Of a DNA stretch of 32,000 nt, positions 26,500 through 31,668 are shown one piece after another. Within the stretch, counting starts at the first letter, position 1; the number at the start of each line of letters is the position of its first letter. Where the stretch lies: assembly GCA_027460535.1 (NCBI GenBank), contig JAPZAR010000027.1:270001-302000 (forward strand). The letters run 5' to 3'. The notes under the pieces are model-generated. The model did no database searches, was not told the DNA's origin, and saw only the letters and a program-made list of their open reading frames with translations. The DNA is from Candidatus Methanoperedens sp. (GTDB lineage: Archaea > Halobacteriota > Methanosarcinia > Methanosarcinales > Methanoperedenaceae). A program made the translations under genes and the position numbers.

Positions 26500-26716
26500 G
26501 GAAGGCGCCGTCCATTAAAATAAAAAACCGCAGATAAAGGCGCCCAGAGTCGCGCCTCTGGAGGGCTCAAAGGGGGAGCCGTGAATGAAAATGACAAACC
26601 GCAGATGAAGGCGCCCAGAGTCACGCCTCTGGAGGGCGTGTACACGTATGCCCGCAGGCATACGTGGGCGCGGAGTCGAGAACCCGCAGGGTTTCGGCAT
26701 GATGAACGCAGATTTA
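26500..26716. repeat. Mosaic hairpin-module repeats (one partial copy and one complete 119-bp composite element at 26597-26715)
   Basis: aaccgcagat[a/g]aaggcgcccagagtc[g/a]cgcctctggagggc occurs at 26526-26565 and 26597-26636. Hairpins lie at 26544-26561, 26615-26632, 26643-26666 (10-bp stem) and 26680-26694. Both termini are identical to those of 28509-28668. Confidence 0.85.
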
Positions 26717-26794
26717 TAACACTGTCTCCAGAAATTATTAGCTTTCACCAATTTTTTGAAGTAAATGTTATTATTTCATTAGAAGCTCATGCAG

Positions 26795-26890
26795 CAACCC
26801 GCCCGAAGGGCGGCGCCGTATATGAAATAAAGAACCGCAAGATGAACGCCCCGAGTCGCGCCTCGGTGGTGGGGGCGAAAGCCCTCATCC
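26795..26890. repeat. Further hairpin modules of the same family
   Basis: Hairpins at 26799-26813 (ccgccc/gaa/gggcgg), 26851-26866 (ccgag/tcgcgc/ctcgg) and 26873-26884 (gggc/gaaa/gccc). The unit ggcgccgtatatgaaataaagaaccgcaagatgaacgcc parallels 26504-26543. Confidence 0.7.
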
Positions 26891-27582: not shown

Positions 27583-28127
27583 TTTGCACCTCTTTAGCTG
27601 AATGGTTTGAAGCACCGGGTGAGGGATGATATTATCGTGTTAGATATGGTGAATTCACATTTATATTATTATGGTTCTTTTGCAACTCTGCAACGTCACG
27701 TGCAGGGCGACTTTTAGTTTGCGTCAGATTTGAAAGCGGAAGAGAGTACGACAACGATGTCCCCGCTGTTTTTCGCCTACCACCACTTCATGCTCTCCCT
27801 GAACCTCGTCACCCTCTCATCCTTATCCGGTTTCCTGAAAACATAGAGATGCTCATGTCCGATGAGATAGAAGTCATACTTCTTCCCGAACCACTTCTCC
27901 CTCGTGCTCTTCATCTTCCACTGGAGCTTGATGATATCCTCGCGCAATATGAATCCCGCCTCAAGGAAGCTCATGAGCACCCTCGGCGTAATGGGCACGA
28001 AATGCTTGTTGCGCCGCGTATCGCCAATCAGGATGGCGCAGTGCTTGTTGGGCTTCAGGACGCGCATGCACTCACCGGCGACGAGGCGCATCTCCCGATC
28101 GAACTCGGCGATGCTGTGCACGCTCGA

Positions 28128-28204
28128 AAGCCGAAACTTCGGCTTGCGCAGTGTTGGGGTATGCTCTGCATACCCCTCGTTTGATAAACATTTCCTAAAG
28201 GTTT
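28128..28204. repeat. Three-hairpin module lying in frame inside methyltransferase copy A
   Basis: Hairpins at 28128-28145 (aagccgaa/ac/ttcggctt), 28156-28176 (ggggtatgc/tct/gcatacccc) and 28186-28204 (aaacattt/cct/aaaggttt, one mismatch). The module is colinear with 131-180 on the opposite strand. Confidence 0.8.
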
Positions 28205-28247
28205 TTGAGAGGTCGCCCTCGCGGTCATGGGAATAGGGGATGATGCT

Positions 28248-28348
28248 GGAGTACAGAGAAAGTAGCAAAGAATCAACCACAGAGGACACAGAGTTCACAG
28301 AGAGATGTTGTTTTATCTCTGTGTCCTCCGTGCTCTCTGTGGTTTTTT
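28248..28348. repeat. ~100-bp block with long nested inverted repeat, replacing the motif IV region of copy A
   Basis: The arm aaccacagaggacacagag (28275-28293) faces ctctgtgtcctc[cgtgctct]ctgtggtt (28317-28344). An inner stem is cacagagat/atctctgtg. There is no counterpart in copy B, which has 85 nt encoding ...DLIATHPPYA here. Confidence 0.8.
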
Positions 28349-28508
28349 ATCTCATGCGTCTGATACTCTGAATCGAGCGGCATGTAAACAAAATCCAGCA
28401 TGTTGCGCGCCACCATGACAGCATCAGGATTGATATCCACGCCCACGGGGCGCCAGGAGTTTGCATTCCATCAAAGCTTCCTGAAAAAATGCGGTATTTT
28501 GGAAAAAA

Positions 28509-28668
28509 AACCGCAGATGAAGGCGCCCAGAGTCACGAGCCTCCCGAGTCGCGCCTCGGGAGGGCGCGTCCACGTATGCCTTCAGGGCATACGTGTTGTT
28601 TGGGAGTCGAGAACCGTTAGGTTTCGGTCTGAGAACCCGCAGGGTTTCGGCATGATGAACGCAGATTT
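28509..28668. repeat. 160-bp composite hairpin element inside methyltransferase copy A
   Basis: The left 29 nt (28509-28537) are identical to 26597-26625, and the right 38 nt (28631-28668) are identical to 26678-26715. Internal hairpins lie at 28543-28560, 28571-28595, 28612-28625 and 28633-28647. Confidence 0.85.
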
Positions 28669-29010
28669 GCTGTTACATAGGAGGTAATCCCCCCATGCCG
28701 GCCATCTGGTCCAGCACAAGCTCGCCGGGCTGGGTATAGCGCAGGATGAGGTTGCGCGGGATGTAGGGGGACCAGTTGCCCCTGTAGTTCCCAACGTGCG
28801 TCGCCCAGTCGCAGCGGTCGGAGAAGCTCCAGACCTTGGTGGTTTCTGGGGTGAAGGTGGAGGGGGCGAAAAATCTACCCTTATCGGCATCTTCAAGCTT
28901 AGTGAATGGTAATCGTTATGCAGCAGGAAAAAGAATATACACAATACAGGATAAATAAAAATAATATAAGATCTTATAATAACAAATCGCAAAACCATAA
29001 GGAGTTCATA

Positions 29011-29205
29011 ATGACGGAAGCAGAGATAATTGATGCAATTTATGACAACGGGGTTCTTAAACCTTTAAAAAAGATCGAACCATATGAAGGCAAGATAATA
29101 GAGATACGCATACGGAAAGTGGAAAATATTTTGAGAGAAACTTCTGGAATATTCAAAGGAAAATACAATAAGAAAATGAGATATGAAATGTATGATACTC
29201 ATTGA
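29011..29205 (+). CDS. DUF104-type antitoxin
   Basis: MTEAEIIDAIYDNGVLKPLKKI... matches the archaeal DUF104 pattern (AxYENGVLKPL). It overlaps the downstream PIN gene. Confidence 0.65.
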   Translation: MTEAEIIDAIYDNGVLKPLKKIEPYEGKIIEIRIRKVENILRETSGIFKGKYNKKMRYEMYDTH

Positions 29206-29635
29206 TTCGTCTGTTTTCCTGAAACATTTTCTTGAAGGTGATGCAAAAGCGCATGATTTTTTGAAAAACGCTAAAGACAAAGCGGTTATTTGTGATATTA
29301 TTGTAAATGAAGTTATATATATTTTAATGAAACAATACGTTGTCAATAGATACGATTTAAAACACTACGATGCTATTGATCATCTCAAGAAACCAGATAT
29401 TTTCCAGGAAGCATTTGACAATGCGCTTGTTTTTATAAAATTGATAAAAGCCATTGATTGCGAAGTACTACCCGATGCGAGATACTTTGAAATGATGGAT
29501 ATTATGGGAAAATATAACCTTCTTCCGAATGATGCTTTGATCGCTGCGACATGCAGAGCCTATGGAATATCCAGGGTTGCATCTTTTGACAGCGATTTAA
29601 AAAATTTGGATTTCATAGAGCTTATTGAATTATAA
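29183..29635 (+). CDS. vapC: PIN-domain toxin
   Basis: ILIDSSVF, NEV, LLPNDALIAA and SFDSD supply the four acidic PIN positions. An alternative start is ATG 29192. Confidence 0.8.
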   Translation: MKCMILIDSSVFLKHFLEGDAKAHDFLKNAKDKAVICDIIVNEVIYILMKQYVVNRYDLKHYDAIDHLKKPDIFQEAFDNALVFIKLIKAIDCEVLPDARYFEMMDIMGKYNLLPNDALIAATCRAYGISRVASFDSDLKNLDFIELIEL

Positions 29636-30065
29636 TTAAAAGTCATTGTATGGATTGAGCAGACACTGGAGTCCGGGGGGTGTTAGGGGAAGGTGAGAAT
29701 AACATCTGAAACGCCTACCACCACTTCATGCTCTCCCTGAACCTCGTCACCCTCTCCCCCGCATCCGGCTTCCTGAACACATAGAGGTGCTCATGCCCTA
29801 TCAGATAGAAGTCATATTTTTTCCCGAACCACTTCTCCCTTGTGCTCTTCATCTTCCACTGCAGCTTGATTATATCCTCGCGCAGGATGAGCCCTGCCTC
29901 AAGAAAGCTCATCAGCACCCGCGGCGTGATGGGCACGAAATGCTTGTTGCGCCGCGTATCGCCTATCAGGATGGCGCAGTGCTTATTGGGCTTGAGCACG
30001 CGCATGCATTCAAGCGCGACTTTCCGCATCTCCTCGGCAAACTCAGCGATGTTGTGCACGCTTGA

Positions 30066-30128
30066 AAGCCGAAACTTCGGCTTGCGCAGTGTTGGGGTAT
30101 GCTTTGCATACCCCTCGTTTGATAAAAA
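30066..30128. repeat. Hairpin module inside methyltransferase copy B (two of the three hairpins of copy A)
   Basis: Hairpins at 30066-30083 (aagccgaa/ac/ttcggctt) and 30094-30114 (ggggtatgc/ttt/gcatacccc). The third hairpin is absent and an A5 run (30124-30128) remains. Confidence 0.8.
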
Positions 30129-30397
30129 GGTCGCCCTCGCGATCATGGGAATAGGGGATGATGCTGGCATAGGGAGGGTGGGTGGCGATGAGGTCAACGG
30201 ACTCGCTCTCTATCAGGTCAAGCGAGCGCGCGTCTCCCGTGTATGTCCTGATCTCAGGTACTTTATACTCGGCATCCAGCGGCTTGTAAACAAAATCCAG
30301 CCTGTTGCGCGCCACCATGACAGCATCCGGGTTGATATCCACACCCACGGGGCGCCAGGAGCTTGCATTCCACCAGAGTTGTGCCTGAGCCCATCAT

Positions 30398-30531
30398 CCC
30401 GAGTCGCGCCTCGGGAGGGCGCAGACACGTCAACCGTTGCGCCAGTTGACGTCGCACACACGTATGGCTCCGCCATACGTGGATATCGCTGCGCGATATG
30501 CCCGCAGGGCATACGTGGATTCCCGCTTACG
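30398..30531. repeat. 134-bp hairpin-module insertion splitting the SAM-binding motif of copy B
   Basis: It lies between codon D (30532-30534) and MMGSGTT (30397 downward). Hairpins are at 30398-30415, 30428-30451, 30459-30481, 30483-30499 and 30497-30513. Confidence 0.85.
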
Positions 30532-30926
30532 GTCAAGCACATGCTCGCCGGGCTGTGTATAGCGCAAAATGAGGTTGCGCGGGATGTATGGCGACCAGTT
30601 GCCCCTGTAATTCCCCACGTGCGTGGCCCAGTCGCCGCGGTCGGGGAAGGACCAGACTGTGGTGGTTTCGGGGGTGAAGGTGGAGGGGGCAAAATTTGAG
30701 ATCGTCCACTTCGGCTGGAGTTTTATTTTTGTTTCCCCGATTTCCACTTCCGTGTGGGATTGGAGGAAATGTTTGTAGTCAGTCCTTGTGATCTCGAACA
30801 AGGATCGATATTGATATGATTACTAATATATAAATTAATATGATCTAATTATGTGAATATAATTAAGTTGGAAGTAAGGTGTAAGTAAGTTATAATTAAA
30901 AAATCCGATTTAAGATCATTAATGCA

Positions 30927-31164: not shown

Positions 31165-31668
31165 CTAATTTTCTGGAAGCAAACCTAACAAGAGTATTGG
31201 GACAGGAATTGGCAACAATTTAAAATATCGATATGCAAAGTCGAATTCAGCCATATTATTTACGCTAGCAGGGCGAGTTGGGAAAAACTCTTTTGGTGTT
31301 GTGGGAACAATCAAGACTGCCAAAGAAAGAAGATTTTTTGTCAATCCAAAATGAAATTTATAATAATCACGATAGATGGTTGCACTGTTTCCAAATTGAA
31401 TCTCTACAAAAACATCATTCTTTTGATAGTCTCCTATTAATTTTGGATTTTCATAAAGCACAGGTTGTGGCTGCCAATTATATTTGAAAAATTCAGCATC
31501 AAATGCTTTATTGTATGCTGTTTGATGTTTATACTCGGTGCCGTTTTGCTGAATTTCGAATTCAGGCTTCCATTTTACAGAATCTATGCATGAAAATATT
31601 TCTTGTACTTCATCGACATTACGAAGTAAGCGCGGACTGCAAAAAAAATACTCTTTCTTAAATTTCAT
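31165..31668 (-). CDS. BglII/BstYI-like type II restriction endonuclease
   Basis: 167 aa. IGDYQKNDVFVEIQFGN parallels the BglII catalytic segment (D...VEVQFSN) as recalled, and the C-terminal VPILLLGL parallels VPIRLVGL. The ORF is uninterrupted. Confidence 0.55.
   Translation of the reverse strand: MKFKKEYFFCSPRLLRNVDEVQEIFSCIDSVKWKPEFEIQQNGTEYKHQTAYNKAFDAEFFKYNWQPQPVLYENPKLIGDYQKNDVFVEIQFGNSATIYRDYYKFHFGLTKNLLSLAVLIVPTTPKEFFPTRPASVNNMAEFDFAYRYFKLLPIPVPILLLGLLPEN

Follow-up and report, generated by a model that had tools for sequence, protein, structure and literature searches.

The window, by which we mean the whole 32,000-nucleotide stretch of Candidatus Methanoperedens DNA that was analyzed, contains a broken DNA methyltransferase gene on its minus strand, referred to here as copy B. 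When copy B is read through its interruptions, the product matches PF01555 with 91.8 bits (curated cut-off, 26.7; E = 8e-26), and both motif I (GSGTT) and motif IV are present, the latter as HPPY, where (D/H)PPY is the expected form. The host gene is a PF01555 N6/N4 DNA methyltransferase. Its joined coding pieces give a 299-residue protein, and many unbroken Candidatus Methanoperedens homologues of 299 amino acids, with 90-92% identity to copy B, run uninterrupted through both sites at which copy B carries inserts, reading VLDQM(A/M)GSGTTLVECKLLGRRAVG (i.e., VLDQM(A/M)GSGTT) and REGDLSSVHNI. The neighbors of copy B are a BglII-like endonuclease open reading frame (ORF), an AbrB/MazE-like gene, and toxin-antitoxin pairs (AF2212-like/PIN, DUF433/DUF5615, and MqsA-like). 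Aligned at the DNA level with an intact gene (L031:6001-6900, positions of which are given as q), copy B shows three lesions, namely, a gain of 131 nt at q271, a loss of 5 nt at q315, and a gain of 61 nt at q546. The features are as follows:

29715-30801, minus strand: DNA methyltransferase copy B, a pseudogene spanning q1-900 of the intact gene, with three lesions
30531-30801, minus strand: N-terminal coding segment, with codons 1-90 (...YTQPGEHVLD) and base 1 of the Gln91 codon
30398-30530, no strand assigned: insert of hairpin repeat DNA, 133 nt, which takes the place of the AG of codon 91
30356-30397, minus strand: coding resumes at Met92 (MMGSGTTLVECKLL), motif I glycine loop
30355-30356, minus strand: site of a 5-nt deletion (GACGG of ...KLLGRRAVG...), frame shifted
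30067-30127, minus strand: second hairpin-repeat insert, 61 nt, between REGDL and SSVH

The original prediction had placed a 134-nt insertion within motif I. The insertion lies where it was claimed, but its length has to be corrected to 133 nt (30398-30530), since, in the alignment with the intact gene, base 30531 already belongs to the Gln91 codon, as its first position. The insert replaces 2 nt, which gives the net gain of 131 nt, and it sits between D90/Q91 and M92, immediately ahead of the GSGTT glycine loop (VLD/MMGSGTT). The reading frame was found, as had been described, to end with ...YTQPGEHVLD at 30532 and to begin again with MMGSGTT at 30397 in a different frame, and the PF01555 match together with the unbroken homologues bears out the claim that the insert splits the motif I region of a SAM-dependent methyltransferase and shifts its frame. 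The exact insertion point, which had been left to a comparison with an uninterrupted homologue, is the AG of codon 91, with no target duplication. Translation continued from the N-terminal frame into the insert meets a TGA after 33 codons.

Because the 133-nt insert, the 5-nt deletion, and the 61-nt second insert all break the frame, copy B is a dead pseudogene. A tblastn search of the organism's own genome found, apart from a copy in worse condition (copy A), no other copy of the methylase gene; the genome is left without a working copy of this methylase, and the 133-nt insert has no function for the methylase gene. Copy A carries the identical 5-nt deletion (at 28453/28454) and an 81-nt version of the second hairpin insert. 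The second inserts of the two copies differ at one position in about 60 nt, compared with about 88% identity between the surrounding gene copies. The BglII-like endonuclease ORF that adjoins the dead methylase is itself open (window 31165-31668, minus strand; 167 amino acids; PF09195, E = 4e-10). As the genome yielded no functional copy of this methylase, either the endonuclease is inactive or another methylase provides protection.

The original prediction had further described the insert as consisting almost entirely of five hairpins. An inverted-repeat search recovers all five, between 30398 and 30513:

30398-30415: CCCGAG/CTCGGG
30427-30452: ACGTCAAC/GTTGACGT
30459-30481: CACGTATGGC/GCCATACGTG
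30483-30499: ATATCGC/GCGATAT
30497-30513: TATGCCC/GGGCATA

On the gene strand, the RNA fold of the insert stretch reaches -64.7 kcal/mol (z = -2.96 against dinucleotide shuffles), and the DNA fold reaches -36 kcal/mol (z = -3.5), a value that none of 200 shuffles attained. It had also been noted that the first 25 nt are shared with an insert in copy A and that the remainder differs. Both points hold: the 25 nt recur at 28543-28567, and the part shared by the two inserts is the first hairpin only. The copy A insert is the following feature:

28508-28666, plus strand: hairpin array within a CGCAGAT 10-mer element, about 10 nt deeper in motif I of copy A

A full-length methylase in another genome of the sample (L035:682-1656; G020:C208) carries an 84-nt in-frame insertion with an empty CGCAGAT 3 x 10-mer element, which replaces the GSGTT loop (VLDQMAG-WVVTSDVTTNLRSSAFICGLISKILHFIFK-EALVECKLL). 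The copy A insert is homologous to this empty in-frame element and has since been filled with hairpins.

Secondary structure of this density, and the fact that loss of 132 nt would restore the frame locally, could be taken to mean that the insert is removed at the level of RNA or translation, as a bulge-helix-bulge intron, another kind of intron, or a bypassed segment, so that copy B would still yield methylase. We regard this as highly improbable. Neither the minimum free energy fold nor the centroid fold pairs the ends of the insert, and no bulge-helix-bulge motif was found. Exact excision of 133 or 134 nt would not restore the frame, and two more frame-breaking lesions lie downstream. A search with Rfam returned only a tRNA over the window at gathering thresholds and no match over 30300-30650 at E up to 1. 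In addition, the same modules are ordinary intergenic repeats elsewhere, for example, directly past a thermosome stop codon. The insert should not be annotated as an RNA gene, an intron, or a switch. Instead, the insert probably descends from a small non-coding hairpin repeat of the REP/BIME/MITE kind that is confined to Methanoperedenaceae, as a copy that has both decayed and grown and that is lodged in a dead methyltransferase gene.

As a query, the 133-nt insert has 55 partial matches in its own 2.9-Mb genome, and a harvest that used several arrays as queries gathered about 45 arrays with a total length of 5.8 kb. The family is present in all 15 sampled genomes of the genus, in both sampled genomes of the sister genus, and in 1 of 62 genomes from other families of the order; it is specific to Methanoperedenaceae. 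At this window, five arrays fall within 4 kb when the inserts of copies A and B are included, against a Poisson expectation of 0.06 (P about 7e-9). The three further arrays, all within 26525-26876 on the plus strand, are as follows:

26525-26569, plus strand: array of the family
26596-26713, plus strand: array of the family
26835-26876, plus strand: array of the family

Most arrays of the family are intergenic. The tetranucleotide ACGT is enriched 5.1-fold in them (104 observed, 20 expected) and makes up the outer pairs of most stems; an ACGT stem base is found in 58 of the 242 perfect hairpins whose stems measure 9 bp or more. A frame of CCGCAGAT... and ...AACGCAGAT encloses most arrays; these sequences are the terminal parts of a 3 x 10-nt unit (AACCGCAGAT RAACGCAGAT RAACGCAGAT), and this unit also occurs empty at no fewer than 26 places. 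Examples of the unit are C16:16369-16398, C27:185609-185638 (outside the window), and window 26525-26713. The 10-mer unit is the preferred landing place of the hairpin modules. About 14 arrays, that of copy B among them, have no 10-mer frame. The unit itself often has GAAAATAAAA in front of it and TTTGTTG behind it, and in some cases a second copy lies in inverted orientation within a few bases. No description of the family was found in the literature on palindromic repeats, MITEs, or repetitive extragenic elements of Methanoperedens.

Comparison with other genomes resolves the copy B insert into a core and a block nested in it. The first and the last hairpin belong to one unit, which in other genomes includes a third hairpin. 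This core is about 80 nt long, with the consensus (T/C)CCGAGTCGCGCCTCGG(A/G) AGGGCGCAGAC ACGTATGCC..GGCATACGT GGATTCCCGCT CCCGAAGGGTAATCGGG, and full-length copies of it occur in many species at 93-100% identity. Across 22 copies the stems are 98% paired and most stem positions are invariant; compensatory changes are found at three stem pairs (13 cells), with a covariation score that 0 of 500 shuffles matched. In copy B, the parts lie as follows:

30398-30430, plus strand: left part of the core, with hairpin 1 (CCCGAG TCGCGC CTCGGG, 30398-30415), the linker AGGGCGCAGAC, and the ACGT that opens the stem of hairpin 2
30431-30497, plus strand: nested block of three hairpins (stems 30427-30452, 30459-30481, and 30483-30499), inside the 5' arm of the hairpin 2 stem at CACGT^ATGCC
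30498-30530, plus strand: right part of the core, with the rest of hairpin 2 (ATGCCCGCAGGGCATACGTG), then GGATTCCCGCT and TAC

The left part (hairpin 1 and linker) is identical to methylase-site copies of other genomes and matches a free-standing copy at C8:5192-5224 with 97% identity, whereas its identity with an array on contig C11 is about 79% (26 of 33 nt). The TAC at the right end is the remnant of a deleted third hairpin, which is found complete (CCCGAAGGGTAATCGGG) at the methylase site in G043, G010, G007, G101, L118, L122, and L125. A free two-hairpin copy of the core (62 nt, C10:139085-139146) starts one base past the thermosome stop codon and is soon followed by a T-run; it occupies the place of a 3' UTR hairpin or terminator.

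The core occurs in two contexts. In the first, it lies inside 10-mer arrays (...CGCAGAT-element-ACGCAGAT...) at many unrelated loci of many genomes; in the second, it lies in the methylase gene (...CTTGACCAG-element-ATGG...). No clear target motif is common to the two contexts (CGCAGAT^ versus CCAT^), and a fixed target of 4-5 nt on one side cannot be derived from them. At the methylase site the element adjoins an internal ATG(A/G), which is true neither of the free copy at C10:139085 nor of the copies in 10-mer arrays.

In the methylase context, the element sits at the exact CAG^ATG bond, just 5' of Met92, in methylase copies from at least nine species genomes (G043, G007, G101 with two copies, G010, G110, G105, G015, G020, and the organism's own genome) and from 10 metagenome contigs. 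The gene bases are complete on both flanks (CAG-element-ATG) in the best-preserved cases, which are G043, G010, L118, L122, and L125, and none of these shows a target-site duplication (TSD). Since the flanks are complete and nothing is duplicated, the insertion was precise and proceeded without a TSD. These comparisons also bear on whether the copy B insert might be an assembly artefact, that is, a mis-joining induced by repeats. Its modules do recur across the genome, and hairpins pose difficulties for sequencing; however, unique gene sequence lies on both sides within one contig, and related forms, the direct precursor allele included, occupy the same base in about 19 independent assemblies, which makes such an artefact extremely unlikely.

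The GACC-proximal side of the element is unstable, and several distinct deletions of the third hairpin were observed. The junction GTAAGC is found in copy B, L117, and L123; the junction GGGATCGTGAATCC or AGGATCGTGAATCC in G110, L116, L119, and L120; CATC in G015; and AACTCTCG in L121. In the lineage of copy B, the third hairpin was deleted together with the AG of codon 91, and the resulting GTAAGC junction recurs in samples other than our own. Specifically, L117 and L123 combine this junction with ATGATGGG after the element and carry 65 nt in place of 133, a net gain of 63 nt that stays in frame; both are silent truncated copies. The allele of L117 and L123 is the form directly preceding that of copy B. 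The junction GGATTCCCGCTTACGGTCAAGCAC, which is specific to copy B, had no exact match in metagenome or genome collections, and the precursor allele was recovered only by searching with the junction on the other side.

The 67-nt nested block is missing from L117 and L123, which otherwise match, and the three-hairpin block entered the second hairpin stem at CACGT^ATGCC after the third hairpin had been lost. It is 98.5% identical (65 of 66 nt) to C11:5138-5203. There, an array of 182 nt (C11:5071-5252) equals the 115-nt array at window 26599-26713 with this 67-nt block added at the corresponding position. Consequently, two different host arrays have received the block at one and the same short sequence, and the empty form of each is known. 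The block may have arrived by nested transposition; alternatively, it may have passed between arrays with ACGT-based stems in common, through template switching or gene conversion. Hairpin 2 of copy B has a loop that resembles the C11 loop, which favors a copied tract reaching beyond the block.

The setting in which these alleles occur is that of tandem methylase arrays. In many Methanoperedens genomes, such arrays consist of one full copy followed by one to four copies; the downstream copies all start at ...(A/T)TTCG/CCCCCTCCACC (at about position 108, or about codon 36) and end 3 nt past the stop codon, and toxin-antitoxin or Abi cassettes sit between the tandem copies. No integrase was seen in these methylase cassette arrays. 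Examples are window 27774-30801, L045 (G014:C38:7000-18000), L046, L047, L050, L085, and L123. A tandem array is also present in one genome of a neighboring family (G025), and many truncated copies have an open frame, with dN/dS of about 0.1 against the head copy. The arrays look like the outcome of successive displacement of the gene's 3' 800 nt by incoming cassettes or of unequal recombination. Methylase copies of one genome tend to cluster together. In other genomes whose array was resolved, the element carrier is a truncated copy; in this genome, it is a full-length copy.

Copies A and B differ from each other with dS of 0.4-0.7 and dN/dS of 0.07-0.26, values on which neutral decay of both from a common dead ancestor was rejected. 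The lesions that they nevertheless have in common must therefore have passed between copies. The carriers of the Met92 element are scattered on a tree of the adjoining 309 nt, where their distribution takes seven label changes and 149 of 500 shuffles do as well. A single carrier clade on the flanking sequence was sought and not found, and carriers that share a complex junction are not neighbors either. Downstream of the element, dN/dS among carriers picked for their open frames is 0.05-0.13; upstream of it, dN/dS is 0.21 for carriers versus 0.07 for non-carriers.

We propose the following history, which draws on these comparisons. The insertion at the methylase site would be old and would have arisen once or a few times, and homologous recombination or gene conversion would then have moved the insert from one methylase copy to another within tandem arrays, in which methylase copies may have been repeatedly overwritten from working ones. 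The full-length appearance of copy B would be most simply explained by recombination of a live head copy with a silent, interrupted downstream copy, and the nested block was probably copied in by template switching or gene conversion between arrays or brought in by nested transposition. Three findings weigh against our account as a whole: no mobilizing enzyme was identified; carriers form no clade on the 309 nt, a result equally expected from repeated site-specific insertion; and their divergence is strongly of the purifying type, which calls for gene conversion or recent displacement as an explanation.

The same scatter of carriers fits repeated homing, in which an enzyme would insert an active, TSD-less 80-nt mobile element independently at CAG^ATG and CGCAGAT^, so that copy B would carry an insertion of its own. 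Sequence-specific insertion certainly occurs, given that the element is found at one exact position of CGCAGAT 10-mer arrays at many unrelated loci and in many genomes. In addition, the carriers' dS of 0.4-1.3 and dN/dS of about 0.1 look as if functional alleles had been hit recently and separately, and the absence of a TSD together with the hairpin ends recalls single-strand transposition of the IS200/IS605 type. Despite this, we judge repeated homing to be unlikely as the source of the copy B insert. The first stem pair is C..G in 7 of 7 methylase-site copies (retrieved with an unbiased query) and T..A in all 13 copies from the 10-mer context, so that the methylase-site copies look like one lineage; the GTAAGC and GGGATCGTGAATCC junctions are common to carriers that are not sisters, which points to recombination of an existing insert; the two target contexts have no clear motif in common; and no associated transposase was found. 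We hold it equally doubtful that the element and the nested block are active site-specific mobile DNAs of a new archaeal kind, with neither TSD nor terminal inverted repeat (TIR), with ACGT-bounded stems, and homing to CGCAGAT^, CAG^ATG, and CACGT^ATGCC. If this were true, the occupied site in at least nine species would reflect repeated homing into, or upkeep of, silent methylase/toxin-antitoxin cassette copies. The preference for recombinational spread over homing is based on sequences that are short and recombine.

Occupation of the site in so many species also raises the question of whether selection keeps the interrupted, 5'-truncated copies together with the Met92 element, whose role would then be that of a leader or promoter for a protein spanning Met92-299, of a recombination barrier or hotspot in the cassette array, or of an element that silences displaced copies. 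About half of the carriers have an intact frame of 208 codons from Met92, and the low dN/dS downstream of the element in the intact-frame carriers would agree with such a role. However, about half of the carriers, copy B included, are broken soon after the element, and a protein starting at Met92 would be without the conserved N-terminal 91 residues that the PF01555 profile covers. In addition, the stretch ahead of the insert lacks its own start codon and is conserved as well (the dN/dS of 0.21 given above, with many perfect-protein copies), which fits gene conversion and weakens the case for a selected Met92-299 protein. We consider maintenance by selection improbable.

Among the closest known systems are the REP/BIME/REPIN repeats of Gammaproteobacteria, which include GTAG- and CGTC-tagged repeats (PMC3733652). 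Both these and the Methanoperedens family consist of short GC-rich palindromes, perfect or imperfect, in tens of copies per genome, mostly after genes, and both form mosaics of variable modules with a conserved tetranucleotide at the stem base, occasional intragenic copies, and compensatory stem changes. The features by which REP/BIME are recognized (short palindromic units, many copies, a mostly extragenic location, and mosaic clusters) are all found in the Methanoperedens family. The latter differs in that it is archaeal, confined to one family, and tagged with ACGT rather than GTAG or CGTC; no GTAG or CGTC end recurs family-wide in its arrays, and CGTC occurs inside one module type, ACGTCAAC. 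Also unlike REP/BIME, its modules nest in the stems of other modules, and one subfamily occupies two precise contexts.

Stricter class assignments were rejected. The family is not REP in the strict sense, as it has neither a GTAG/CGTC tag nor a Y1 transposase flanked by repeats. A link to Y1/IS200-type transposases was discarded as well: the organism's own genome has four PF01797 Y1 (IS200/IS605-type) transposase loci, and no ACGT hairpins were found within 900 nt of them. A single module, made up of a 10-mer head and hairpin 1, lies upstream of one Y1 gene (C22:79801-79838), at a distance of about 125 nt from the 5' end of its PF01797 match, and no such module accompanies the other three. A strict MITE is likewise rejected, since the copy B insert has no TSD and its terminal symmetry extends over only 5 nt (CCCGA...TCGGG), with no longer TIR.

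Other comparisons are partial. Pneumococcal BOX elements (boxA-boxB(n)-boxC) resemble the arrays in having fixed end modules around a variable number and kind of internal hairpin modules; there is no sequence relation, however, and the ends of the Methanoperedens arrays are a separate 10-mer (CGCAGAT) element that hairpins have invaded, ends which copy B does not have. IS200/IS605 elements and PATEs share with the Methanoperedens element the absence of target duplication and of long TIRs, hairpins at or near both ends, and precise, sequence-specific sites, but no similarity to resident IS ends or to the flanks of Y1 genes was found. Rickettsia palindromic elements (RPEs; PMC10969869) are, likewise, palindromic repeats within protein-coding genes. 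Whereas RPEs are in frame and tolerated in working proteins, the copy B insert destroys the frame, and an in-frame element of the RPE kind is ruled out for copy B by the net 131 nt, the TGA after 33 codons, and the two further lesions. The GC clusters of yeast mitochondria (PMC4478555) are also small GC-rich hairpins; they are embedded in DNA richer in AT and insert both into each other and into genes. This is an analogy only, as the organisms and sequences are unrelated.

Three things are new here: the methylase site is fixed, intermediate forms of the insert are on record, and the carrier copies do not group together by their flanks. The series of states is unusually clear, leading from the empty site to the 80-nt element, then to loss of the third hairpin, and then to nesting of the 67-nt block, each state having an observed empty or earlier form. 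It shows the growth of mosaic hairpin arrays in an archaeal lineage for which the searchable literature describes no such repeats. A fixed site with shuffled flanks also provides a handle on the mobilizing enzyme, if there is one, and on sequence exchange among the cassette arrays of Methanoperedens. The Met92 bond is not the only position at which methylase copies carry such DNA. A second recurrent insertion site lies at gene position 182-196, approximately, in the truncated copies L052 (G010 c2), L053 (G009 c2), L054 (G018), and L085 (G043 c2), whose arrays are 57, 165, 127, and 49 nt long and differ in module content, and G043 has a further insert at gene position 146-148.
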